Of a stretch of DNA of 48,684 nucleotides, positions 5,767 through 48,684 are shown piece after piece; within the stretch, counting starts at the first letter, position 1; each line of letters opens with the position of its first letter. This DNA comes from a virus (Duplodnaviria > Heunggongvirae > Uroviricota > Caudoviricetes). The stretch lies in IMG/VR virus record IMGVR_UViG_2923302340_000001; one strand, written 5' to 3'. The notes below the pieces were generated by a model that worked only from the letters and a program-made list of their open reading frames with translations, was not told the origin of the DNA and did no database searches. A program made the position numbers and the translations under genes.

Positions 5767-7656
5767 GTGAGTAAATTATTATTTACGATGACTGACGCCG
5801 GGCGTCAGGAGTTGGTTAATGCCAACAAAACAGGAACAAATAAAGTTGAGATTGTTTCTGTTGGTTTAGGTGGTAGATATTATGTCACGTCAACCTCACA
5901 AACAAATATAACAAACGAAATAAAACGACTTACCACAATAGGTGGCAAAGTTGTTTCCCCTGATACAATTCATGTAACGGCGAAGGATGATAGTAAAGAT
6001 GAGTATGTTGTCCATACAATAGGATTGTATACAAATAAGGGAACGTTGTTTGCTGTATACTCGCAAGAACAAGCAATAATAAATAAAGCATCATCTACTA
6101 TTGCTTTAATATCAAGTGACATAGCAATCAAGACTCTTGATACTAAAAATATTATATTTGGTGATATTGAGTTTATTAATCCTCCCGCGACCGAAACTGT
6201 TGTTGGGGTTGCAAGATTTGCTAATGAACAAGAAATTGATGCAGGTACAGATGATTCCCTTGCTGTTTCAGCAAAGCGGCTTAAGCAAGCCATTGTGAAA
6301 CATGAGCAATCACGTAATCATCCTGATGCAACTTTAACCTCAAAAGGCTTTGTTCAACTTAGCAGCGCCACCAATAGCACGTCTGAAACGCTTGCTGCGA
6401 CGCCTAAGGCTGTTAAGGCAGCATATGACCTGGCTAACGCTAAATACACCGCACAGGACGCTACCACTGCGCGGAAAGGGATTGTTCAGCTCAGTAGTGC
6501 CACCAATAGCACGTCTGAAAAGCTAGCAGCAACACCAAAGGCTGTTAAGGAAGCGTATGATCTTGCGGCCGGAAAGGCTCCTTCCAATCACACGCATTCG
6601 TGGGATCAGATTACAAATGTGCCTGTAGCTTCACTGACAGTAAGAGGAATCACTCAGCTTAGTAGCGCCACCAATAGCACGTCTGAAAAGCTAGCAGCAA
6701 CACCAAAGGCTGTTAAGGAAGCGTATGATCTTGCGGCCGGAAAGGCTCCTTCCAATCACACGCATTCGTGGGATCAGATTACAAATGTGCCTGTAGCTTC
6801 ACTGACAGTAAGAGGAATCACTCAGCTTAGTAGCGCCACCAACAGCACGTCTGAAACTCTGGCTGCGACACCGAAAGCTGTTAAGGTGGTAATGGATGAA
6901 ACAAAAAAGAAAGCCCCCCTCAACAGTCCGGCTCTGACTGGAACGCCAACAACGCCAACAGCACCAAATGGGACTAATAATACTCAGATCGCAAGCACAG
7001 CTTTCGTTATGGCTGCGATTTCCGCACTTGTAGACTCGTCACCTGACGCACTGAATACGCTGAACGAGCTGGCCGCCGCGCTTGGTAATGATCCAAATTT
7101 TGCAACCACCATGACTAACGCGCTTGCGGGTAAGCAACCGAAGGATGCCACCCTGACGGCGCTGGCAGGACTTGCTACAGCAGCAGATAAACTCCCTTAT
7201 TTTACAGGGGCAGATCGTGCCGCGTTAACCGCACTGACAAGTGTTGGACGTGCCATTCTTAGTAAGCCCAGCACACAGGGGGTTCTTGATTACCTTGGTT
7301 TACGAGAAGCGGCAAAACGGGATGTAGGGACAGGAGCAAATCAGATACCTGATATGAGTTTATTCGCGTCAATTAATACCGTAACGGCTGCTGCGCAAAA
7401 ATTTCCGTCTGGATTAATTTTACAGTGTGGCCAGTTGAATGGTGCCCCGAATGTATCTTCAACATACGGGATGAGGTTCCCGATGACGTTCTCAAGAGTC
7501 ATTGCTGTCGTAGTTACATTGAACGTTACTGGCGCGGCAGGGCAGCCGACTGTATCGGCGACAAATGTCCAGAACACTGGATTTGATATTACAGTGTCGC
7601 CCGGTTCAGGATATGGTTCATCTGCTGATGCGTATTACATTGCAATGGGATATTAA
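5767..7656 (+). CDS. tail fibre protein (constant N-terminal part plus currently expressed C-terminal cassette)
   Basis: GTG start; 629 aa; repeated ...[26 protein letters not shown]... fibre repeats; hix-like crossover site inside the coding region at 7283..7308. Confidence 0.8.
6487..6822 (+). repeat. near-perfect tandem duplication (2 x 168 bp) inside tail-fibre gene
   Basis: 6487..6654 and 6655..6822 differ at 2 positions; flanked by diverged copies of the same 56-codon unit. Confidence 0.9.
7283..7308 (+). other. candidate recombinase crossover site (hix/gix-like) inside fibre gene
   Basis: TTCTTGATTACC TT GGTTTACGAGAA: 26 bp with imperfect dyad, close to Hin hixL consensus as recalled. 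Confidence 0.5.
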
Positions 7657-8080: not shown

Positions 8081-8654
8081 CATCCGGCGCTGTGCTGGTA
8101 TCTGTTGCCGTCACCGCGTCAATGTAATCCAGCACAGCGTTAAGGCGGGTTGTTTCTGCCTGCGTCAGCTTTCGCCCAGCCTGTAATTTCAGTTGAATCA
8201 GACTAATGGAAGCCATTGCAGCATCAATCAGTGACTGGCGCTGTGCTTCTGCCGCTTCTACTGCGGCACCGTGTTGTGCCTCAACATCCGTCACCCATTT
8301 CTCACCATCCCATTTATCGTATGGCGTTAACGGGGCGATAGTGGTTGTATTTTCAGGATAGTCGCCCGGTGCAGTTATTTCTTTGGCGTCACCCGTTTCG
8401 GTGTTATAGACGATTTCACCACGATGGTCTGGCACATATTCCCATGAATTTAAATCCACAGAACGGCAGATTGCATAACCAGCCTTATGTATGCCGGGGG
8501 CATCTAAACAAGAATATGCCGGAATACCAACACCTACCGCAAGATATTCAGTTGATGCGGAAATATATTCCTTTGTCTCACTGTCATAGTTGTAAACGAT
8601 GATGTTTCCTTCCTGTACGGCAATAAGTTCATTATTCAATATCGCGCTATTCAT
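8052..8654 (-). CDS. tail fibre assembly chaperone, alternative cassette
   Basis: 200 aa; C-terminus ...[24 protein letters not shown]; convergent with 7661..8080. Confidence 0.7.
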
Positions 8655-9104
8655 TATGCAGCTCTCACAATATAGTTAAATGCAATATTTCTCGGACGGG
8701 TTTCACGCCCACCAGGAATTTGAAAAGCATTAGCGGTTGTAGATCCGCCTTCCTGATTAATTCCTGTTGTATAAATACCACTCACACCATTTTGCAATGC
8801 AAATACTGTTGCGGTTCCAGGCCCACCACCGGGCCCAAAATACTTAAGTTCGAACTTTTTAATATCATCACTCTGAATATTCAATAAAGCACGTCCTGTA
8901 TCAATGCCGCGTCCATCATCCCAGCCACGAATAAACTCACCGCGTAAATCAGGAAGTTTTCCTGACGGGTATGCTTTGGCAAGAGTTGGATATTTCACCT
9001 TATCAAAGGCAGCACCGTTGCATTTCAGCCAGCCCGTTGGAGGGGTTGCGGAGGGCCACGGAACAGGTACACCAACAGGCAGCGCCGAACCTTCCCCAAA
9101 CCAA
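8654..9104 (-). CDS. promoterless alternative tail-fibre C-terminal cassette B
   Basis: Shares a 232-bp direct repeat (8881..9112 vs 9367..9599) including the crossover-like site with cassette A; no ATG; motif KYPTLAKAYPSGKLPDLRGEFIRGWDDGRGID; ends ...RPRNIAFNYIVRAA. Confidence 0.45.
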
Positions 9105-9116
9105 CGTTTTTATGCA
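9091..9116 (-). other. candidate crossover site (cassette B)
   Basis: Plus strand CTTCCCCAAACC AA CGTTTTTATGCA; minus strand carries the TTGGTTT core in inverted orientation relative to 7283..7308; overlaps stop of cassette A. Confidence 0.4.
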
Positions 9117-9640
9117 GCCCTCACGATAAAGTTAAATGCAATATTTCGTGGACGGGTTTCACTCCCGCCAGTATTACCGATACTCCCTCGTGAATGAAGT
9201 GTCGGTGATGGAATCAGAGTTCCTCCGGCATCGGCAGCATCAAGCCCCCGGCCTTGCGTATATGCTCTTCTGAAGATTGTCGCCAGTTCCCATTCCTCTT
9301 TTGAATCATACCCATCGTTGGCAACAACAATATGGCGGTGTTTTTCCAGCATCCCAGTCTGAATGCTCAATAAAGCACGTCCTGCATCAATACCACGCCC
9401 GTCATCCCAGCCACGAATAAACTCACCGCGTAAATCAGGAAGTTTTCCTGACGGGTATGCTTTGGCAAGAGTTGGATATTTCACCTTATCAAAGGCAGCA
9501 CCGTTGCATTTCAGCCAGCCCGTTGGAGGGGTTGCGGAGGGCCACGGAACAGGTACACCAACAGGCAGCGCCGAACCTTCCCCCAAACCAACGTTTTTAA
9601 CTTCGTGAACTGAGCTATCTAATAGCATTTTCACTAACAT
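9110..9640 (-). CDS. alternative tail-fibre C-terminal cassette A
   Basis: 176-aa ORF; codons downstream of the crossover-like site are in the frame needed for fusion to the fibre constant part (...DYL | GLGEGSALPVGVPVPW...). Confidence 0.5.
   Translation of the reverse strand: MLVKMLLDSSVHEVKNVGLGEGSALPVGVPVPWPSATPPTGWLKCNGAAFDKVKYPTLAKAYPSGKLPDLRGEFIRGWDDGRGIDAGRALLSIQTGMLEKHRHIVVANDGYDSKEEWELATIFRRAYTQGRGLDAADAGGTLIPSPTLHSRGSIGNTGGSETRPRNIAFNFIVRAA
9578..9603 (-). other. candidate crossover site (cassette A)
   Basis: Plus strand TTCCCCCAAACC AA CGTTTTTAACTT; minus strand AAGTTAAAAACG TT GGTTTGGGGGAA; 45 bp from invertase start. Confidence 0.45.
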
Positions 9641-13944: not shown

Positions 13945-14034
13945 AGCATTGCTGAAATGTCTTTTTCAAGACCTTGCCAATAAGCTAAACAAAAATGTTT
14001 AATGCTTCGCCTAAAAAAACACCAGTTACTATTA

Positions 14035-14145
14035 TTTATATAATTATAGATTTATATAAAAAGTGCTTTACATGTGGGAAAAAATTTCCTAAGGTTATAC
14101 CCGAAACCGAGCGATACCCGCCCTGGTTAAACCGGAGATAACCCG
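14035..14145 (+). promoter_or_regulatory. repeated promoter/leader cassette, copy 1
   Basis: ~110 bp nearly identical to 23415..23525 and 30666..30775: AT palindrome, TTTATATAAA, TTTACA-17 nt-TAAGGT, conserved leader ACCCGAAACCGAGCGATACCCGCCCTGGTTAAACCGGAGA, then ATG. Confidence 0.45.
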
Positions 14146-14526
14146 ATGAGCATGATTAAAATCCGCAAAAACGCTTTCCTTAAAATTCAAACTATCCTGG
14201 CTGGTTCTGTTGGCGTGATTTGCCGTTCTTCCTCAAGCCGCATCGATGACGGCTACGATGATGAGTATCGTGTGTCCTCATGCGATGAGGCTTTAACCTG
14301 GCTGAAGGAGAATCAGGAACGTGCCCAGGTATATCTGGAAACAGAGAACGGCAATCAGATGCTGCGTATTAGCGGTCGTTATGGATTTGAAACTACATTC
14401 ATGGCCTATTTTAATCAGGCTTACTTTGACAAGGAGTTGGCTTGGTACACTGATCGCATGAGCAAAAGCGAGCCAGCCCCGATTACACCGCCGAACAATA
14501 AACCATTTTTATTCCTCGTTAAGTAA
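14146..14526 (+). CDS. hypothetical protein (first gene behind cassette copy 1)
   Basis: 126 aa; no motif recognised. Confidence 0.35.
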   Translation: MSMIKIRKNAFLKIQTILAGSVGVICRSSSSRIDDGYDDEYRVSSCDEALTWLKENQERAQVYLETENGNQMLRISGRYGFETTFMAYFNQAYFDKELAWYTDRMSKSEPAPITPPNNKPFLFLVK

Positions 14527-17498: not shown

Positions 17499-17662
17499 GG
17501 TGATAGTTCCCTTAAAGGTTAAGGATACTCACCACCGTCTGGTTCCAATCATTGGGTGGTGAGACGTACAGGGTTGGAACTACCGGTCACCATGGAATCC
17601 GGCGAGTCTTACGACTCCCCCGCACGCCCCACCATAATTTGGGTGTAGCAGTGCTTTACGCA

Positions 17663-17683
17663 TAAAAAAACCGCTAACGCGGT
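17663..17683 (-). terminator. candidate intrinsic terminator (minus strand)
   Basis: ACCGC-TAAC-GCGGT followed on the minus strand by T7. Confidence 0.4.
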
Positions 17684-17828
17684 ATGCGCCATGATGATTA
17701 TCGGGGTTCCAATCCCGACCGTAGATTTTGCTACGGCTCGGAAAGTGTCCACCAATGGCGCATTCATGTCAATACGGCGGGATTTTAACAGAGACAACCA
17801 CATAGCGTGGGTTTATTGGTAGGCAGAA

Positions 17829-17857: not shown

Positions 17858-18234
17858 CTTTCGTGCTGATCGGATTCGCGGTCCTTTCAGCATTACGTTG
17901 TTGTATAAATACAACCACGCAAGCACAAACAGCGATCATATTCTTACCCAACTGAATAAAATTGTCCAAATAAATTTGGTTTATTAGAGCACAAAAGCGA
18001 GTGATTTTTGTGGTGTGTATTTAAGTTGATGAAAAACAATATGTTTTTATCCCTTCATTATGAAGGGGCTGCGGTGTAACATTACGCGGGGCCTTTTCGC
18101 CGATTCGCAACCGGGCACCGACTTTCAGGAAAGGATTATCCACTTGCCGTACCACGCAGGCACAAACAGCGTGCTTGCTCTCGCGTCATTTTCGTCGGTG
18201 GGGATGCCGTGAAACGGCCTGTAAGGGCCACACA

Positions 18235-18357
18235 ATGAAAAAATACTACATGTGTATTTTTATCGTTGTTACTGGAGCTTTGTTTACGCCACATGGGGAG
18301 GGTTGGAAGATTACTGATAACGCTCTGAATGTGACGATAAACATTAGCAGCAAGTAG
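18235..18357 (+). CDS. small hydrophobic peptide (40 aa)
   Basis: MKKYYMCIFIVVTGALF...; followed by a strong terminator. Confidence 0.2.
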   Translation: MKKYYMCIFIVVTGALFTPHGEGWKITDNALNVTINISSK

Positions 18358-18362
18358 CGATT

Positions 18363-18386
18363 AGGCCCCTTCGGGGGCTTTTTTTA
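18363..18386 (+). terminator. intrinsic terminator
   Basis: AGGCCCC-TTCG-GGGGC followed by T7. Confidence 0.6.
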
Positions 18387-18607: not shown

Positions 18608-18856
18608 TTACTTCTGGTTGTATTGAGCCTTGAGTAACTCAAAAGATTTTGTCAGCACTTCTTTCAATGACATATCCATTGAGCTGGCGAACGTTTTGTA
18701 CTCGCGTTTAAATTCAGGGTCGACGTTAAACGCCATCTGTGCCCCACCTGATTTGGTTCTGGTCGGCGTTTCAGTCGGGTCGAAAACCTGCGGTTGTTCG
18801 ATTGATGGCGGTACGCCTTTGCTGTTCTTTTTCGGTGGTTTTGATGGTGCGGCCAT
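18608..18856 (-). CDS. ParG-like ribbon-helix-helix partition/centromere-binding protein
   Basis: 82 aa; basic Pro-rich N-terminus; C-terminal ...FNVDPEFKREYKTFASSMDMSLKEVLTKSFELL... RHH-like; directly downstream of ParA. Confidence 0.45.
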   Translation of the reverse strand: MAAPSKPPKKNSKGVPPSIEQPQVFDPTETPTRTKSGGAQMAFNVDPEFKREYKTFASSMDMSLKEVLTKSFELLKAQYNQK

Positions 18857-18899
18857 GTGTATCCCCTTTTATATAAATCTATAAAACTATAATTATATA

Positions 18900-19568
18900 T
18901 TACGCGGCAGTAGTCAGAGCCTCAAGCTGATTGATAATCCCCTGGATAACATCGTCTGCCTTTTTGCGTGGCGCAACGTATGAACACTCAATGAGGCTTA
19001 AGCCCTTATCCTGAGCTTTGCTCAGAGCTGGCTTGTGGGGAATGTACTTATCGACAACAAAGTATGGCGTATTAGCCAGGTACTCTTGGGCTTCGATGTA
19101 GTCAGCTTCGTTTTCAGCCGCGCCGGAAAACACCATGCAAATTTTCTTGATTGGTACACCCTTTTTAACGATGCCGTGAGCAGTGTTAACGGTGGTTTCC
19201 AGGTCATCGGTAGAGAATCGGGTTGGCAAAATAACCATATCCAGAAATTCAGATAGCTTCGGTACTGATTCAGATGCGTAGGCACCGCCATCAACGATAA
19301 CCAGGTCGTATACTTCTGATTCGATGATTTTCTGGACTTGTGATGGCGTGCCGCACGGCTGCGCCGCGATTGCAGGTTCGATATTGTTGGCCATTCTGCG
19401 TTGTACCCAACGCGTTACCGTTCCGTTAAGCACATCCATATCGATCAGGCATACATTCCAGCCAGCCTTTGCATAAGCAACTGCTAAAGCACGAGCAATG
19501 GTTGATTTGGTTACGCCGCCTTTTCCGTTGAAAATACCTACAGATATAGTCATTTGTCGAGACTCCAT
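18900..19568 (-). CDS. parA: ParA/ParF-type partition ATPase
   Basis: Deviant Walker A GIFNGKGGVTKST; 222 aa (alternative start 19553). Confidence 0.8.
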   Translation of the reverse strand: MESRQMTISVGIFNGKGGVTKSTIARALAVAYAKAGWNVCLIDMDVLNGTVTRWVQRRMANNIEPAIAAQPCGTPSQVQKIIESEVYDLVIVDGGAYASESVPKLSEFLDMVILPTRFSTDDLETTVNTAHGIVKKGVPIKKICMVFSGAAENEADYIEAQEYLANTPYFVVDKYIPHKPALSKAQDKGLSLIECSYVAPRKKADDVIQGIINQLEALTTAA

Positions 19569-19574
19569 GTGTTT

Positions 19575-19674
19575 GATTATATAATTCTATAAATCTATAT
19601 TTATAGAATGAGGTAAGCATAACCAACTTTTGAGCGGATGAAAAGCACTTTATATAATTATATAAATCTATAAT
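19575..19674. promoter_or_regulatory. partition-operon promoter with two AT-rich palindromic boxes (candidate centromere/operator)
   Basis: GATTATATAATTCTATAAATCTATATTTATAGAAT (19575..19609) and AAAAGCACTTTATATAATTATATAAATCTATAAT (19641..19674) upstream of parA. Confidence 0.4.
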
Positions 19675-19702
19675 ATGTAAGCGGGCTGGCGCCCGCTTGC
19701 AG

Positions 19703-23355: not shown

Positions 23356-23414
23356 AAGTGTCATTTTGAGCTGTTTTGGTGATTTGTAGACACCGGGAAT
23401 ATCGGAAAATCTAT

Positions 23415-23525
23415 AAATATATAATTATATATTTATATAAAAAGTGCTTTACAGGTGGGAAAAAATTTCCTAAGGTTATACCCAAAACCGAGCGATACCC
23501 GCCCTGGTTAAACCGGAGAAATCTG
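23415..23525 (+). promoter_or_regulatory. repeated promoter/leader cassette, copy 2
   Basis: TATATAATTATATA (23418..23431), TTTATATAAA, TTTACAGGTGGG..., conserved leader, ATG at 23526. Confidence 0.45.
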
Positions 23526-24593
23526 ATGAATAAACAAGTAATTATTTCTGACTGGATCAACAACCCTAACAGCCTGTTGAGCACTGATACTGGCTATAGA
23601 TTACGTCATGTTAATGGCCGTATGGTCAAAAGCGATGAGCACGAAACCTTTTTCGTTGTTGAAGACGATGGACGTCTTTATGAGGATGGTCACTCTTATG
23701 AATCCCAAACAGGTTGTATCCCTGCAGAGTTGGTAGACGTAACAGAAAAGCTGCGCAAAGCATGGCTTGAACAGCAGCAGCGCGGAGATGATTACGTAAA
23801 TACCTATCAGGAGCGCCAGAACGCGCGTCTTGCCCGATATATTGCTCGTGCAGAAAAAGCCAGAAAAGAAGGTGCGGTGGCGCATAAGCGAGCGCATGAA
23901 CTGTTGGATGTGATCCCGTTAGGCCAGCCGATTTTAGTTGACCATTATAGCGCGAAAGGCCATCGCCGCCGTTTGTCTAAAGCTGATGCGTTATTCAGAA
24001 AATCGTTTGTTGAGTGTGAAAGCAGAGCATCGTACTACGAAAGCAAAGCCGCAGGTGTCGGCCGTAATGGAGTTTCGTCTGATGATCCTGATGCGCTATT
24101 TAAGTTGCTTCGTAAGCTGCAAGGCTGCATGAAGTCACACATCAAAATGAAGGCCGCAAATAAGGCTATTCGCAAATACAAAAAAGACCAATTACAGCAG
24201 CTTTCCGCATTAATTGACCTTGAGTTTACTGAAAGCGAAGCCAAAGGGTTACTCGCCGGAGATTTCTGTGGGCACATTGGCTTCCCTTCATACTCACTGA
24301 GTAACAATAATGCCGAAATCAAACGACTACAGAGCCGTATTAAGGAGCTTGAATCGGTCAAGTCTGTAACAGGAGCACAGCGCGAAGAATACGACGGCTT
24401 TTCTATGGAGATAGATCCAGAGGATAACCGTATCCTGTTTTATTTCCCTGGCAAACCAGAGGCAAACATTCGTTCGCTGCTTAAATCACGCGCCTTTAAG
24501 TGGAGTCCAACCCGTAATGCATGGGTTCGCAAGATTACTCCAAACGCCCTGGCTGATGCCCGATATCTGAAAGAATCGCTATTGAAAGCCTGA
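23526..24593 (+). CDS. DUF3560-like protein (tentative)
   Basis: ATG 23526 directly after conserved leader (track start 23376 would translate the promoter cassette); 355 aa. Confidence 0.4.
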   Translation: MNKQVIISDWINNPNSLLSTDTGYRLRHVNGRMVKSDEHETFFVVEDDGRLYEDGHSYESQTGCIPAELVDVTEKLRKAWLEQQQRGDDYVNTYQERQNARLARYIARAEKARKEGAVAHKRAHELLDVIPLGQPILVDHYSAKGHRRRLSKADALFRKSFVECESRASYYESKAAGVGRNGVSSDDPDALFKLLRKLQGCMKSHIKMKAANKAIRKYKKDQLQQLSALIDLEFTESEAKGLLAGDFCGHIGFPSYSLSNNNAEIKRLQSRIKELESVKSVTGAQREEYDGFSMEIDPEDNRILFYFPGKPEANIRSLLKSRAFKWSPTRNAWVRKITPNALADARYLKESLLKA

Positions 24594-24624
24594 CAGTAAG
24601 TCTACGGCGGGATGTCTCCCGCTG

Positions 24625-24650
24625 TATATAGAATTATATATTTATATAAA
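24625..24650. promoter_or_regulatory. AT-rich palindromic box upstream of 24671 gene
   Basis: TATATAGAATTATATA + TTTATATAAA. Confidence 0.35.
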
Positions 24651-24670
24651 TGTATAAGGACGCCTCGACA

Positions 24671-27587: not shown

Positions 27588-27727
27588 TGAAGCACATACA
27601 ACCGAAAACATGGCAGAAACTGGACTCTATGGGAGTTAAGTTGGAGAAGATTACTCAACTTAAGCAGTGGCATATCGGCGAATATTATGGAAGTCCTGGT
27701 CGGGATGTTCGGTTGGTCAAAAGTTAA
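27587..27727 (+). CDS. unannotated 46-aa ORF
   Basis: TAATG overlap with upstream gene; MKHIQPKTWQKLDSMGVKLEKITQLKQWHIGEYYGSPGRDVRLVKS. Confidence 0.2.
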   Translation: MKHIQPKTWQKLDSMGVKLEKITQLKQWHIGEYYGSPGRDVRLVKS

Positions 27728-27871
27728 GCATTGTTTTTTTATTGATCGACTAACCACATTATGAAGGTTTTTTTATGGGGAAACCTTGTTTTAGGTGGTA
27801 ACTGGGTGTAGTGTTTCATTTAACGTAGTAAAACTGCGTTAAGCGATTACCGCGTAATTTGTTGCTTTATG

Positions 27872-27903
27872 AAGCCCTGCCTTTTCGGTGGGGCTTTTTT
27901 TTT
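27872..27903 (+). terminator. intrinsic terminator upstream of lysis genes
   Basis: AAGCCC...GGGCTT hairpin followed by T9; overlaps track ORF start 27869. Confidence 0.45.
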
Positions 27904-27916
27904 AACGAGGATTTCA

Positions 27917-28312
27917 ATGTCAGCAGAACCAATTTCCGGTACGGCCGTTGCTGCTGGTGGCCTGATGGGTGCCAGCGTTTTTGGTATTGCAACTGGTATT
28001 GATTACGGCGTTGTATTCGGGGCATTTGCTGGCGCTGTTTTCTATGTTGCTACAGCGGTGAATATTAGCCGTCTCAAGCTGATTGGCTATTTCTTTACAT
28101 CGTTCATTGTTGGAGTGATTGGAGCGCCGTTAGTTGGCTCATTTCTTGCCAAATGGACCAGCTACAACGATCGTCCTCTTGATGCGCTTGGTGCGGTTAT
28201 TGTGGCTGCATTGACAATTAAAATCCTCACGTTCGTAAACAGCCAGGATCTCGGTAGCATCTTTGGAATGCTTTCCCGCTTACGTGGAGGGGGGTCAAAT
28301 GGTAAGCAGTGA
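27917..28312 (+). CDS. holin-like membrane protein
   Basis: GAGGA RBS; Gly/Ala-rich predicted TM helices; first gene of lysis block. Confidence 0.45.
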   Translation: MSAEPISGTAVAAGGLMGASVFGIATGIDYGVVFGAFAGAVFYVATAVNISRLKLIGYFFTSFIVGVIGAPLVGSFLAKWTSYNDRPLDALGAVIVAALTIKILTFVNSQDLGSIFGMLSRLRGGGSNGKQ

Positions 28313-28595: not shown

Positions 28596-29124
28596 GATTT
28601 TTAACAGCGTTCTTGGAAAAGAGGGCGGCTATGTGGATCACCCTGACGACAAGGGAGGCCCAACAAAGTGGGGCATTACTCAGAACACTGCCCGTGCTCA
28701 TGGATACCGTGGCGATATGCGCGATTTAACCCGCGAACAGGCACTGGAAATCCTTGAGGCTGATTACTGGTACGGACCACGCTTTGATCAGGTGGCCGCA
28801 TTATCCTCTGATATTGCCGCAGAGCTGTGTGACACGGGGGTGAACATGGGGCCAACAGTGGCGTCAAAAATGCTTCAACGCTGGCTGAATGTGTTCAACC
28901 TGCGCGGGAAGCTGTATCCCGATTTGGATGCAGACGGACGAATCGGTCCACGTACCATTAATGCGCTACGTGCTTATCTTGGGAATCGGGGAAAAGACGG
29001 CGAACGGGTGATGCTGACGTCGCTGAACTGTACGCAGGGCGAACGCTATCTGGAGCTGGCGGAGAAGCGCGAGGCTAATGAGTCGTTTGTCTACGGCTGG
29101 ATGAAAGAGCGAGTGGTGGTATGA
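28582..29124 (+). CDS. endolysin, GH108-like muramidase with peptidoglycan-binding domain
   Basis: ...EGGYVDHPDDKGGPTKWGIT... and ...YWYGPRFDQV... Confidence 0.65.
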   Translation: MTKDEIFNSVLGKEGGYVDHPDDKGGPTKWGITQNTARAHGYRGDMRDLTREQALEILEADYWYGPRFDQVAALSSDIAAELCDTGVNMGPTVASKMLQRWLNVFNLRGKLYPDLDADGRIGPRTINALRAYLGNRGKDGERVMLTSLNCTQGERYLELAEKREANESFVYGWMKERVVV

Positions 29125-29399
29125 CTGGTTTGAAAGCCGTTTTGTCATTTATCGGCACCGTTATATTGGTTGCATTCGGTGCGTTTGGTTTTGGTCGTAT
29201 GAAGGGGCGAGAAAAGGCCGAAGATGAAGCTGAAAAGCAGCGCATTAATGAGAATGCAGCCGCCGTAAAAGCCACTGCGGAGCGGCGTATAGAAGTGACA
29301 AAAGAGGTGGGGAATGTACAGCAGAGTGTTAACCATATGGCTGATGACGATGTTGATCGCGAGCTGCGGGAGTCGTGGAAGCGTCCCGGTGGTGGTTGA
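29121..29399 (+). CDS. Rz-like i-spanin
   Basis: N-terminal TM helix, charged coiled-coil region; contains overlapping +1 ORF. Confidence 0.5.
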   Translation: MTGLKAVLSFIGTVILVAFGAFGFGRMKGREKAEDEAEKQRINENAAAVKATAERRIEVTKEVGNVQQSVNHMADDDVDRELRESWKRPGGG

Positions 29400-29523
29400 T
29401 ACCGCCTGTGATTGGGTAAAGCCCATCTACCTGACTGATCACGACATCGATGTTATGGACCGCCAGACAAAGAAAGATATTCTGGCTCATAACAGGGCAT
29501 GGGAAATCAACTGCCGAAAGTAA
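29314..29523 (+). CDS. Rz1-like o-spanin lipoprotein
   Basis: Overlaps Rz-like gene in another frame; lipobox-like LIASC. Confidence 0.5.
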   Translation: MYSRVLTIWLMTMLIASCGSRGSVPVVVDTACDWVKPIYLTDHDIDVMDRQTKKDILAHNRAWEINCRK

Positions 29524-29554
29524 TATATATTTCTATAATTATATAAATATATAG
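29522..29554. promoter_or_regulatory. AT-rich palindromic box downstream of lysis genes
   Basis: AATATATATTTCTATAATTATATAAATATATAG. Confidence 0.3.
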
Positions 29555-29600
29555 TTACAACATTCTATGCGCTTTTCTCATGGGCGCACGCATCAACCAT

Positions 29601-29681
29601 GTTTGTCTGATATGCCGCCGCGCCCAAAAATCCTGAATTTATTGGCTGGGATTTTCGTGCGCGGCGCCACACCAGACAAAC
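29601..29681. repeat. long imperfect inverted repeat (~35-bp arms)
   Basis: GTTTGTCTG...GCCGCCGCGC... paired with ...GCGCGGCGCC...CAGACAAAC, immediately upstream of the tRNA. Confidence 0.5.
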
Positions 29682-29692
29682 AAATCAAATAT

Positions 29693-29768
29693 GGCCCCTT
29701 AGCTTAGTGGTTAGAGCAGGCGACTCATAATCGCACGGTCATCGGTTCAAATCCGGTAGGGGCCACCA
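29693..29768 (+). tRNA. tRNA with anticodon CAU (Met, or lysidine-modified Ile2 type)
   Basis: 76-nt cloverleaf: acceptor stem GGCCCCU/AGGGGCC, T-loop TTCAAAT, anticodon loop CTCATAA, encoded 3' CCA. Confidence 0.85.
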
Positions 29769-30076
29769 ATTCACCCTCACACATAAAGATAAGCGCGGTG
29801 GAGTTACTTCTTCGTGCTCATCTTTATGCGTGCCTGGTGCACATTTCGGGAAGCCGTTGGTTAGTGAGTACAGGCAGGGCCTGTTATCCGCAAAGGGGTA
29901 AAAGCTGGAGCGGCACGGAACTGTAGCCGTGTTACCAAAACAGCGTTGTCGGGCGATATCCGGCACACAACAGGCAAGGGCATTAATCAGTCTGGTTAGT
30001 GCCCTTTTCGTTGTGTCTGCTGTAGAGCTGGCCAGCGTTATGACTGCCGGAGATAAGCGCCGGAGGCACAACTAAC

Positions 30077-30664
30077 ATGGAGGCAATTGCATTGTTTAAT
30101 CTGATTTATGCAGATCCCCCCTGGGAATACAAAGATAAGTGTAAGGATGGGAATCGTGGAGCTGGTTTTAAGTATCCAACGATGAAAGCTGAGGATATTG
30201 CTCGTATTCCTGTCTGGCAGCTTGCTAATCCTGAATCGTGTTTGTTGGCCATGTGGTGGGTTCCGACTCAGCCAGAAGAAGCGTTGCTGGTGGTGAAAGC
30301 ATGGGGATTCAGGCTTATGACCATGAAGGGCTTCACATGGAACAAATGTGGTAGCCGACAACCAGATAAGCTGGTGATGGGGATGGGGCATATGACTCGT
30401 GCAAACAGTGAAGATTGCTTGTTTGCGGTAAAAGGCAAATTGCCGACCCGCCTTGATGCGGGGATCATTCAGTCGTTTACATCGCCTCGTCTGGAGCATT
30501 CTCGGAAGCCTGATGTGGTTCGTGACAAGCTGGTAAGGCTGTTAGGTGATGTTCCTCGTATTGAGCTGTTTGCTCGCGGTGATTTACCTGATGGTTGGCA
30601 TGGCTGGGGCAACCAGTGCAATGGAGGTATCCAGTTGCATGATGCTCTCTGGCAAGTGGCATAG
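30077..30664 (+). CDS. DNA adenine methyltransferase, MT-A70-like
   Basis: N-terminal ...IYADPPWEYKDK... (DPPW motif). Confidence 0.65.
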   Translation: MEAIALFNLIYADPPWEYKDKCKDGNRGAGFKYPTMKAEDIARIPVWQLANPESCLLAMWWVPTQPEEALLVVKAWGFRLMTMKGFTWNKCGSRQPDKLVMGMGHMTRANSEDCLFAVKGKLPTRLDAGIIQSFTSPRLEHSRKPDVVRDKLVRLLGDVPRIELFARGDLPDGWHGWGNQCNGGIQLHDALWQVA

Positions 30665-30665
30665 A

Positions 30666-30775
30666 ATTATATAATTATAGGTTTATATAAAAAGTGCTTT
30701 ACAAGTGGGAAAAAATTTCCTAAGGTTATACCCGAAACCGAGCGATACCCGCCCTGGTTAAACCGGAGAAATCTG
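30666..30775 (+). promoter_or_regulatory. repeated promoter/leader cassette, copy 3
   Basis: ATTATATAATTATAG, TTTATATAAA, TTTACAAGTGGG..., conserved leader, ATG at 30776. Confidence 0.45.
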
Positions 30776-31045
30776 ATGAAAGTACAAGACCGTGAAGTAG
30801 TAAAAAACCTCCTGCAATACCTGACCTCAAAAAACCTGACGGGCAGCGTTGAGTTCCGTGAAGCGTTAAAACATTTCAACGTCACTACGGTTTATCGTTG
30901 GGAAAACAAACATTCTGAAAGACCGTATGTGGTGGATGTTTTTGCGCCTGATATTGAGTGCGGTTTTGAGCGTCATTCGTTCAAGGAGAAACATTCTGCT
31001 GATTTTTTTTGTGAGGTTGTATGTGCGGCAGGAGATGATGAGTGA
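30776..31045 (+). CDS. hypothetical protein (first gene behind cassette copy 3)
   Basis: 89 aa; acidic Cys-containing C-terminus. Confidence 0.3.
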   Translation: MKVQDREVVKNLLQYLTSKNLTGSVEFREALKHFNVTTVYRWENKHSERPYVVDVFAPDIECGFERHSFKEKHSADFFCEVVCAAGDDE

Positions 31046-47326: not shown

Positions 47327-48684
47327 ATGGCCAGCAATAAGAACTTTAAGCTGGCTTTTGAAATTGGCGGCAAAGTTGCCGCCTCTCTCCCCAAAAGTTT
47401 TACTACAGCTAATCAGGCTGTTGCTAAATTAAATGCCGAGCTTGCTGGATTAACGAAAGAACATGGGGAAATTCAAAAGCTACAATCTGTAAAAGTAAAG
47501 GTTGGACAGACTGCCCTCGAATATCATAAAGCTGCCGCTCGCGTTGAAGAGTTACAGAAGCAAATAAAAAACACGGCCAATCCAACCAGAGCGATGCTTC
47601 GTGACTTTGAGAAGGCAAAAACACATTCATCGAATTTACGAGCATCACTACGTTCTCAGCGTGAAGAACTGGCCGCTTTAAAGTCTGCCTATCAGGGAGC
47701 TGATACATCTGCCAGAGCTTTGGCCTCAAGAGAGAAAGAGCTTAAAGCCAGCATTGATCGTAATCGTGAGGCTCAGGCCCGTAGCGTTGAGCAGGTTAAC
47801 CGCTACAGAACGGCTTTGGCTTTAGCCAGAGCAAATGTTCAGCAAGTGAAAAAACAGCAGGAGGAACTTAACCGGGCATTAGAAAAACAACGTATTGATA
47901 AAATTAACAGCTATAAAAATGCGTTGGCTGAAGCACGGAAAAATGTTCTTGCAGTAAAACGTGCTCAGGAGGAGTTAAACCGCGCGTTGGAAAGGCAGCG
48001 TGAATTGAAGCGAGAGCATCTTGGTGAGGCAAAGAGTCAACTTGTAAGGACAGGATTACAAACTGGTGCTGTAGCGGCTGGTGCATTTGCTGCTGCTTAT
48101 AATGCAGCAAATTTTAATCGTGAAAACAAAATGATTGGTCTTACGGCAGATATGAAGCCGGAGGAAGTTCAGGCGATGGGGCAAGCGATGCTTGTTACCG
48201 GGGCGGCTACCAACCAGTTTGCATCTGATATTCAGGCCGCTCAGGGTTTTCTTGTCGCTGCTGGGCAGGATTATAAAGAGGCTCAGGCGAATCTACTAAC
48301 TATTGGGCGAACAGCTACAGCTACTGGCTCTGATATCCTCGATGTCTCGAAAGCATCATTTACATTAAGTGACTCATTGAAGATTGATCCATCTCAAATG
48401 AAGTCTGCAATGGGGATTCTGGTTCAGGCAGGGAAAGAGGGAAACTTTGAATTTAAAGATATGGCCAAAAATCTTCCTGTGCTTGGTGCTCAGTTCCAGG
48501 CATTAAAAATGGGAGGTAAAGAAGCCGCCGCGACGATGGGGGCAGCTTTGCAGATAGCTCGCAAAGGTGCTGCAACTTCGGATGAGGCTGCTAATAATAT
48601 GAACAACTTTTTGGCGAAAATACTTTCCCCTGAAACACTAAAAAAAGCAAAGAAAAATTTCGGTGTAGATTTATATAAAATTGT
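47327..48684 (+). CDS. tail tape-measure protein, N-terminal part (3' partial; continues at nt 1)
   Basis: ATG 47327; coiled-coil-rich N-terminus and Ala/Gly-rich region; last codon GT- completed by nt 1 (c) giving an in-frame join with 2..1435. Confidence 0.8.
   Translation, partial: MASNKNFKLAFEIGGKVAASLPKSFTTANQAVAKLNAELAGLTKEHGEIQKLQSVKVKVGQTALEYHKAAARVEELQKQIKNTANPTRAMLRDFEKAKTHSSNLRASLRSQREELAALKSAYQGADTSARALASREKELKASIDRNREAQARSVEQVNRYRTALALARANVQQVKKQQEELNRALEKQRIDKINSYKNALAEARKNVLAVKRAQEELNRALERQRELKREHLGEAKSQLVRTGLQTGAVAAGAFAAAYNAANFNRENKMIGLTADMKPEEVQAMGQAMLVTGAATNQFASDIQAAQGFLVAAGQDYKEAQANLLTIGRTATATGSDILDVSKASFTLSDSLKIDPSQMKSAMGILVQAGKEGNFEFKDMAKNLPVLGAQFQALKMGGKEAAATMGAALQIARKGAATSDEAANNMNNFLAKILSPETLKKAKKNFGVDLYKI

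Follow-up and report, generated by a model that had tools for sequence, protein, structure and literature searches.

What does a tRNA gene with anticodon CAU decode in a temperate phage-plasmid, and is the long inverted repeat that lies directly before it there for its sake? The locus belongs to a stretch of 48,684 nucleotides (IMG/VR virus record IMGVR_UViG_2923302340_000001), which was analysed as a whole and is called the window below. The initial annotation had described a canonical tRNA resembling tRNA-Ile2, and had suggested that the repeat upstream of it could be a processing or regulatory structure. We consider the genetic element first, followed by the identity and likely use of the tRNA, and then the repeat, which has to be judged apart from it.

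The window is a circular phage-plasmid of ~48 kb from E. coli and Yersinia, encoding a myovirus with lambda-like head genes together with repA and parA. We class it as a phage-plasmid because the PGAP annotation of pECO-b75, a near-identical family member used here for gene content and codon counts, combines repA and parA with lysis, head and tail genes. That annotation also lists a RelE/ParE toxin-antitoxin pair, an XRE repressor and a Rha/ORF6N antirepressor region, as well as a lysis cassette, lambda-like terminase, portal, protease and capsid genes, and P2-like sheath, tube and baseplate genes. All genes from the lysis genes through the tail fibres are on the + strand, and the pECO-b75 plasmid has no annotated integrase or recombinase. 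Pfam searches with the 82-aa gene adjoining parA at 18608–18856 and with the spanin ORFs gave no match.

Yersinia phages vB_YpM_39, 41 and 44 share 98–99% identity with the region around the tRNA and the inverted repeat, and circular plasmids, mostly of 46–52 kb, are up to 100% identical there. Of 5426 complete E. coli genomes, 69 (~1.3%) carry the inverted-repeat region, at 70 places in total, 69 of them on plasmids. The reference strain ATCC 25922 is among the carriers, its 48,488-bp plasmid NZ_CP009073.1 having the repeat region at 98.8% identity. The element was found too in E. albertii, E. fergusonii and Klebsiella aerogenes. A literature search for this phage-plasmid family and its tRNA returned nothing specific, pSLy3 and HQ103 being different elements. 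In order along the window, the features of the locus are:

29314–29523, + strand: Rz1-like o-spanin ORF with lipobox LIASC, overlapping the Rz-like ORF 29121–29399; last lysis gene
29522–29569: AT-rich box, with TATA units phased every 8 bp, beginning at the spanin stop codon
29600–29633: left arm of the inverted repeat (repeat finder and fold)
29634–29648: loop of the inverted repeat, 15 nt, non-palindromic, TGAATTTATTGGCTG, partly conserved in relatives
29649–29682: right arm of the inverted repeat (repeat finder and fold)
29683–29692, + strand: spacer between hairpin and tRNA, 10 nt, AAAUCAAAUAU directly before the G at tRNA position +1, with U at -1
29693–29768, + strand: predicted tRNA-Ile2 gene, 76 nt, anticodon CAU, CCA encoded (...GCCACCA)
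29778–29832, + strand: second imperfect hairpin, immediately 3' of the tRNA, 27-nt arms, 78% complementary
29976–30010, + strand: intrinsic-terminator-like hairpin with T-run, 67 nt before the MT-A70 start (terminator scan)
30077–30664, + strand: MT-A70 family methyltransferase gene (Pfam PF05063, E = 3.4e-23)

ARAGORN called a single tRNA in the whole window, at 29693–29768 on the + strand with anticodon CAT, and Rfam RF00005 scored 65.8 bits there against a gathering score of 29. Together with the gene coordinates, these results agree with the initial description of a 76-nt tRNA(CAU) with CCA between the lysis cassette and the MT-A70 gene. The MFE fold of the tRNA recovered the acceptor, anticodon and T stems and not the full cloverleaf. 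Nucleotide -1 is U both in the window and in a related IMG/VR contig (L015); RNase P favours U at this position.

Existing labels for this gene disagree. ARAGORN and the GenBank records of vB_YpM_39, 41 and 44 say Met, from the anticodon alone, and RefSeq/PGAP annotates as tRNA-Ile both an identical gene (NZ_CP098182.1) and the gene of pECO-b75, which differs by one base. Compared with chromosomal E. coli ileX, to which it is 88.2% identical, the window tRNA has the same acceptor stem in the alignment (GGCCCCU/AGGGGCC, including C4:G69 and C5:G68), the same anticodon loop (CUCAUAA) and the same pairs 28:42 to 31:39, four of the five in the anticodon stem. Pairs 4:69 and 5:68, as C4:G69 and C5:G68, are major identity elements for EcTilS (PMC11947777). 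In metT these positions are U4:A69 and A5:U68 and the anticodon stem is different. The hallmarks of an initiator are likewise absent: the window tRNA has G1:C72 rather than C1xA72, its anticodon stem reads GGCGA where an initiator has three G:C pairs at the base of that stem, and metZ is unlike it. A73, A37, A38, U12:A23 and C29:G41, reportedly described as IleRS identity elements by Nureki and colleagues in 1994, are all present. A73 and the encoded CCA are also among the likenesses to ileX/ileY, which are chromosomal, whereas the window gene is plasmid- and phage-borne; nine differences separate it from ileX (U13 in the D-stem, A43 for U, and changes in the variable loop and T-arm). Because the acceptor and anticodon stems are of ileX type, the TilS pairs are in place and PGAP annotates a tRNA-Ile, we assign the gene on its sequence to tRNA-Ile2, not tRNA-Met. 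The resemblance to tRNA-Ile2 noted in the initial annotation thus stands, and two of the checks it had named gave a positive result, with the predictor calling the gene, though under a Met label, and the TilS pairs supplying the identity elements.

One position speaks for caution. Pair 27:43 is G·A in the window tRNA and in the tRNA-Ile of a 94-kb P1-like plasmid, G·U in ileX and A·C in L015. Substitutions in the anticodon stem are able to impair EcTilS (PMC11947777), and G27·A43 could lower recognition of the window tRNA by TilS, which would suit a gene that is a tRNA-Met, elongator or initiator, or a non-functional relic. However, A43 is common to the P1-like homologue, and the tRNA sequence is 97–100% conserved across dozens of elements, with stem polymorphisms that retain pairing. 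The window carries the U13 variant, with a U13·G22 wobble, where most relatives have C13 (some E. coli plasmids share U13), and one relative (L224) has C50-G64 for U50·G64. With acceptor and anticodon stems that fit ileX and neither metT nor metZ, and with the PGAP class of tRNA-Ile, we regard the Met or relic alternative as highly improbable.

The P1-like gene, which we take to be the third P1 tRNA gene, between plp and ban, is the closest known counterpart compared here (93.4% identity). It is likewise a phage-plasmid-borne Ile2-type tRNA(CAU), and it shares with the window tRNA A43/C44 and the T-stem differences from ileX. The same AUA-decoding purpose is presumed for P1 tRNA-Ile, reportedly on the basis of the P1 genome paper by Lobocka and colleagues from 2004. 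Its context is unlike that of the window: on the 94-kb plasmid the order is tRNA-Asn, tRNA-Thr, SPFH protein, tRNA-Ile, dnaB, and the two phage backbones are not related. The tRNA genes ileZ-argN-argO, with a rare-codon tRNA-Ile(CAU), lie in the late path near the lysis region of Stx phages such as 933W. These too are temperate enterobacterial phages with a tRNA-Ile(CAU), but their three tRNAs lie upstream of stx and the lysis genes, whereas the single tRNA of this element lies downstream of lysis.

Codon usage bears on what such a tRNA would be for. AUA occurs at 16.1 per 1000 codons in the 65 PGAP CDS of pECO-b75 (25.2% of Ile codons) and at 16.6 per 1000 in a greedy ORF set of the window (25.9%), compared to 3.3 per 1000 in 34 non-ribosomal K-12 genes (5.0%) and 0.6 per 1000 in the K-12 ribosomal-protein operons (0.9%). 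The element is therefore enriched for AUA by 4–5x over the K-12 gene sample, in line with the AUA rationale first offered for the gene; an Ile2-type body goes together with AUA enrichment, rather than a tRNA-Met with none. Per 1000 codons, AUA reaches 21 in the terminase gene, 21.5 in the tape measure gene, 36–48 in baseplate genes and 61 in a gene of head-completion size. As a counterpoint, AUA is avoided in the late genes of highest expression (major capsid gene 0, tube gene 1), and AGA and AGG are likewise enriched in the element, yet no matching tRNA is carried. Taken together, a role of the tRNA as an AUA codon supplement is supported in silico.

The tRNA would be transcribed as part of a rightward late path that runs from the lysis genes through the spacer to MT-A70 and on to the head and tail genes. 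Upstream of it are two holins, a GH108 endolysin and the Rz/Rz1-like spanin pair ending at 29523, of which the Rz1-like ORF (29314–29523) is without annotation in related records. The holin is preceded by a promoter, a leader with a strong intrinsic terminator (27871–27897), and then a Shine-Dalgarno sequence and ATG. This arrangement resembles the lambda pR'/tR' layout, and by that analogy late transcription may depend on antitermination. On the other side of the tRNA, the terminator-like stem at 29976–30010 is preserved in relatives by compensatory changes in different sequences. A sigma-70 promoter scan found no site near the AT-rich box, the inverted repeat or the tRNA on either strand. 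Because no sigma-70 promoter was detected for the tRNA itself, which is positioned within the late path, it is most likely excised from a longer + strand transcript, in which RNase P would cut the 5' end, and RNase E and exonucleases would form the 3' end.

After transcription, host TilS would convert C34 to lysidine, IleRS would charge the lysidine-bearing tRNA, and the product would read AUA, supplementing scarce host ileX/ileY for AUA-rich genes, especially those for terminase, tail and baseplate. The identity features and the codon bias are direct observations; the modification of C34, the charging and the timing of expression are inferred. On this basis the tRNA-Ile2 is very likely a host-TilS-dependent AUA decoder within the late transcript. 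Phage tRNAs that compensate for codon usage are textbook biology, tRNA-Ile(CAU) genes of phages and phage-plasmids are already known, and this one is already tRNA-Ile in RefSeq; as a tRNA it is ordinary. What it adds is a correction, the 'tRNA-Met' of the Yersinia phage GenBank records being an Ile2-type tRNA, and a clean further example of a temperate phage-plasmid that would compensate for a codon its host decodes poorly.

The inverted repeat was rightly recorded as long, imperfect and just upstream of the tRNA, although the start given for it, 29601, is one base off. Its 34-nt arms are 85% complementary and form an 83-nt hairpin that ends 10 nt before the tRNA. The + strand RNA fold has a free energy of -40.3 kcal/mol, compared to -20.7 +/- 3.1 for dinucleotide shuffles (z = -6.3), and 0 of 200 shuffles were as stable. 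Covariation in the repeat was tested on only seven distinct, related sequences, in which 7 of the 34 pairs as read on the + strand, or 8 of the 34 on the - strand, have changed on both sides with pairing kept; one covarying stem position is seen as U-A, C-G and G-C. The count of double changes was matched by 1 of 500 column shuffles, and the covariation score and paired fraction by none of 500. When the partner was slid by 1–3 columns, 0–2 double-changed pairs and 27–50% pairing remained, against 85–89% for the true structure. The stem hardly varies next to the loop (CGAAAAUCC / GGAUUUUCG) and in its outer part, and it is the mid-stem that covaries. Support is good but not overwhelming that the hairpin has been kept by compensatory evolution.

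The repeat is single-copy: a covariance model built from it picked up one copy per genome and no other, in the window as in related elements. Rfam searches of the window and its relatives, at gathering and E-value thresholds, returned only sub-threshold matches of generic hairpin (miRNA-family) models to the repeat. A search of the window for targets complementary to the loop gave 7 matches at <=3 mismatches, compared to 2.6 expected, none of them convincing. Several classes of element were tried and rejected. As an intrinsic terminator the repeat has no U-tract, being followed by AAAUCAAAUAU on the + strand and AUGGUUGAUG on the - strand, and is absent from the terminator scan. A REP/BIME, ERIC or MITE identity does not fit a single copy per element that is not dispersed in E. 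coli chromosomes. An integron attC site, with core sites RYYYAAC ... GTTRRRY, would have the reverse order of the arm ends seen here (5'-GTTTG...CAAAC-3'), and no integrase is annotated. A tRNA-linked phage att site, which holds a partial 3' segment of a tRNA, was set aside with the tRNA complete and no integrase or recombinase annotated on the plasmid, and a cos or pac site with lambda-like head genes that put cos ~6 kb downstream. An ORF of 46 aa across repeat and tRNA (29567–29707) was rejected as coding, given 1-nt indels in relatives and substitutions that are paired, not synonymous.

Relatives separate the repeat from the tRNA. The AT-rich box and the repeat are present at 72–80% identity, with no tRNA there, in two Salmonella plasmids (L003, L004), an IMG/VR relative (L016/L088) and a metagenome contig (L203). 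A further IMG/VR contig, L015/L191, also has the repeat, but its tRNA-Ile2, of 84% identity, is displaced downstream by 324 nt, with a second hairpin and a conserved 'X element' of ~130 nt between the two. Because the repeat and the AT-rich box are conserved in tRNA-less relatives, the repeat is best read as a backbone element, and the tRNA with its 3' hairpin as variable cargo. The hairpin at 29778–29832 occurs only in the E. coli-type clade and travels with the tRNA. Nucleotide homology to the window starts directly after the spanin stop codon, at 29524, runs to 29681 and resumes at 29870; left of the repeat the lysis cassette is non-homologous in relatives, and the segment immediately right of it is variable.

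The 10-nt adjacency of hairpin and tRNA, seen in 68 of the 69 repeat-carrying E. coli genomes and in the Yersinia phages, is specific to that clade. The pattern TAGTTACAACATTC-N50-75-AAAATCC had 8 matches in genome contigs, none in an enterobacterial record, and in viral and metagenome contigs it matched the same clade only, plus the Salmonella-type L203. A looser hairpin pattern in viral contigs gave matches mostly without similarity to the repeat. The repeat would be the older and independent feature, and a rearrangement of ~310 nt in this clade may have left the tRNA 10 nt away.

These comparisons decide how much of the initial suggestion can be kept. If the hairpin existed to process or regulate the tRNA precursor, this would account for the close spacing to the tRNA 5' end in 68–69 E. 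coli genomes and the Yersinia phages, and for the second hairpin on the 3' side. But the hairpin is conserved without a tRNA in L003, L004, L016 and L203, other elements intervene before the distant tRNA of L015, and the P1-type tRNA-Ile is preceded instead by an SPFH-domain gene, which ends 27 nt before it and leaves no room for an inverted repeat. We therefore consider a service to the tRNA very unlikely and drop that part of the claim; the broader part, a processing or regulatory structure in general, is possible and is our preferred guess. That the repeat is a selected hairpin, independent of the tRNA, we hold to be highly probable.

For the role of this hairpin we propose, tentatively and at clearly less than an even chance, an RNA structure for processing or stability on the + strand. 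In the non-coding spacer it would mark a processing point or shield an RNA end, which could be the 3' terminus that the lysis mRNA acquires on cleavage or the 5' terminus of the unit that follows. In the clade with the adjacent tRNA, a cut by RNase P 10 nt beyond the hairpin would presumably make the hairpin the 3' terminus of the lysis mRNA. Phage polycistronic mRNAs contain hairpins that RNase III processes and others that stabilise 3' ends, as at the T7 R sites and lambda sib, and REP-type stabilisers are of this kind as well. RNase III sites and stabilisers have about two helical turns or more of dsRNA with internal loops in a transcribed intercistronic region; an imperfect stem of 34 pairs in a + strand operon path would fit this in structure. 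Like the T7 R sites, lambda sib and REP-type stabilisers, the repeat is a long imperfect stem with internal loops between gene blocks and without a U-tract. It shows no sequence similarity to them and no Rfam match, and its mismatches favour the opposite strand; REP also has many copies, whereas the repeat has one. With the tRNA and hairpin parts combined, the AUA decoder and the + strand processing or stability element form our best explanation of the locus, which we hold with moderate confidence.

The strand asymmetry of the stem is the main difficulty for that proposal. Most transition mismatches appear as A·C when the + strand is read, and as G·U on its complement: G·U occurs in 11 cells at 8 pair positions on the - strand compared to 1 on the + strand, and pairing across variants is 89.1% compared to 84.9%. 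With either strand assumed equally likely, the one-sided probability of <=1 of 9 mismatches on one side is ~0.02. The - strand fold is more stable in 7 of 7 variants, by 3–13 kcal/mol (in the window, -53.5 vs. -40.3). The GC skew of the + strand is +0.16 to +0.17, and a simple mutational cause is disfavoured because a C-to-T bias on the + strand predicts the opposite mismatch pattern. The mismatch pattern, the fold stability and the GC skew argue against a purely + strand RNA role.

The main rival for the hairpin's role accordingly places it on the - strand, as an antisense RNA to lysis or late genes or as a single-stranded DNA hairpin (a priming or recombination signal). Besides the asymmetry, it draws on the sub-threshold Rfam matches, which are mostly on the - strand. 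Against it, there is no promoter-like site on the - strand at 29700–31000 and no - strand gene from the lysis cassette to the tail genes, and what lies upstream of the repeat on that strand is variable (tRNA, X element, other hairpin), which leaves no conserved promoter possible. The conserved + strand terminator at 29976–30010 indicates that the + strand is transcribed nearby, one change in L015 in a small hairpin between the AT-rich box and the repeat favours the + strand, and the perfect-stem variant already favours the - strand by 3 kcal/mol. On balance we find the - strand role doubtful, while preferring the + strand RNA.

Still less probable is that the repeat acts as double-stranded DNA, either as a palindromic site or cruciform for a regulator working with the AT-rich box, or as a boundary that promotes module exchange. 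The box directly 5' of the repeat is one of at least eight in the window, a dispersed family located at operon starts and around parA, and the block TAGTTACAACATTC inside it (29552–29565) is invariant in all relatives. Homology starts at the left edge of the box, with the lysis cassette swapped to the left and cassettes varying to the right, and symmetric changes in a dimer-binding palindrome would mimic compensatory pairs. However, 34-bp arms far exceed any protein half-site, the double changes are spread over arm columns 2, 8, 13, 14, 18, 20 and 22, the 15-nt centre is asymmetric, strand-asymmetric mismatches are not expected of duplex recognition, and the annotated genes of the element include no recombinase or integrase. 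Within the box, GTTACA (29554–29559) aligns by eye with TTTACA of three other AT-box units, with no conserved -10 after it.

The hairpin itself is an unannotated, single-copy 83-nt structure, confined to one small family and kept while flanking genes and cargo were swapped. Its role would inform the processing of late and lysis transcripts in a widespread, little-studied phage-plasmid family, although a change to general understanding is unlikely. A further reading, which we also think unlikely, combines a - strand repeat (antisense RNA or single-stranded DNA hairpin) with its position, and makes it the fixed left border of a hotspot for non-coding cargo exchanged between temperate phages, whose right border would be the conserved terminator-containing block upstream of MT-A70. 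The cargo seen at this site includes the tRNA-Ile2 with its 3' hairpin, the X element and other hairpins. The ~130-nt X element is common to unrelated Citrobacter and Klebsiella phages.

The window contains a dispersed family of AT-rich boxes with TATA units at 8-bp phasing (for example TATAATTA TAGATTTA TATAAAAA), positioned at operon starts and on either side of parA.

14027-14064, 18868-18907, 19576-19615, 19649-19678 and 23400-23445, AT-rich boxes, first part
24617-24659, 29522-29569, 30658-30695 and 48647-48680, AT-rich boxes, second part
14031-14157, 23412-23538 and 30662-30788, copies of a 127-nt unit comprising an AT-rich box and a leader
18900-19568 (-), small ParA ATPase (Pfam CbiA/ParA), then 18608-18856 (-), the gene for an 82-aa protein

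The boxes look like putative binding-site arrays for a single small regulator or centromere-binding protein, an arrangement we take to be comparable to those of pSM19035 (omega protein) or pB171 (parC). The 82-aa protein encoded next to parA is a candidate for the factor that would bind them. Its N-terminus is basic and probably disordered, and its C-terminus appears ribbon-helix-helix-like when judged by eye (MAFNVDPEFKREYKTFASSMDMSLKEVLTKSFELLK); a Pfam search with this protein returned no match. A scan for sigma-70 promoters found none at 29522-29569, the sole box within the scanned part. The three copies of the 127-nt unit (…AAAAAGTGCTTTACAnGTGGGAAAAAATTTCCTAAGGTTATACCCGAAACCGAGCGATACCCGCCCTGGTTAAACCGGAGA…ATG) are 83-93% identical, and further copies were found in relatives. 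Because the copies in the window precede three genes that are unrelated to one another, the unit suggests a candidate common cassette of promoter and 5' UTR.

Additional non-coding elements were identified between the inverted repeat and the MT-A70 gene, some of them in the diverged relatives that carry the inverted repeat (the Salmonella plasmids L003 and L004 and the IMG/VR contigs L015 and L016).

L003:1680-1810, also in L004, L016 and L015, conserved non-coding stretch of ~130 nt (X element), absent from the window
L236:2501-2626 and L237:2501-2603, X element copies in Citrobacter and Klebsiella phages
L015:2170-2210 and L016:2050-2118, second hairpin just 3' of the inverted repeat, not in the window
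30019-30074 (+) in the window, L003:2244-2307, L015:2927-2986 and L016:2925-2988, sub-threshold Rfam match resembling rydB

The X element had no match in Rfam. Unrelated Citrobacter (phiNP) and Klebsiella phages carry copies with 88-89% identity, which sit beside HTH repressor genes in gaps of 0.7-1 kb that are non-coding or sparsely annotated; in one Klebsiella record, a 46-aa hypothetical CDS is annotated across the match. The X element may represent a mobile ncRNA of phages that is so far uncharacterised. The arms of the second hairpin differ in sequence between the two contigs yet stay complementary (AACTGCTAAGCG…CGCTTAGCAGTT vs. AACTGATAAGCACA…TGTGCTTATCAGTT). With 25-29 bits, the rydB-like match falls short of the gathering score (50). 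It recurs at the equivalent position of four diverged elements, after a conserved terminator and before the MT-A70 start codon. The block at 29836-30076 (~250 nt) is 87% conserved, which is above the value for adjacent coding DNA.

Upstream, the lysis region includes the following features.

27700-27917, non-coding leader with a strong intrinsic terminator at its end
29314-29523 (+), Rz1-like o-spanin ORF, 69 aa, lipobox LIASC

The leader terminator (27871-27897) has an 11-bp stem followed by T9, and the holin start codon lies directly downstream. This layout resembles lambda pR'/tR' and by analogy implies that late transcription would be under antitermination control; no Q-like gene was found among the annotated genes. 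The Rz1-like ORF overlaps the Rz-like ORF (29121-29399) in a different frame and is not annotated in related GenBank and RefSeq records.

Three Rfam matches above the gathering score, to C4 antisense RNA (P1/P7 immI type), the Hfq-binding RNA IsrK and ryfA, lie beside the Rha/ORF6N antirepressor genes; this position suggests an immunity region of the P1 type under antisense control.

17552-17639 (-), 17664-17737 (-) and 18087-18385 (+), C4 antisense RNA, IsrK and ryfA
6343-6902 and 8654-9597, 168-nt tandem and 243-nt direct repeats

The 168-nt tandem repeats are present in four copies (73-96% identical), and the two copies of the 243-nt direct repeat, separated by 486 nt, share 94% identity and are flanked by a 62-nt repeat. 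Mapped onto pECO-b75, a near-identical E. coli plasmid with PGAP annotation, both regions would presumably fall in the tail-fibre region.

Database labels for the tRNA vary. Three GenBank records of Yersinia phages (OR545053-OR545055; vB_YpM_39, 41 and 44) name it tRNA-Met, and their remaining genes that were examined all carry the label “hypothetical protein”; RefSeq calls the gene tRNA-Ile where it occurs on E. coli plasmids.
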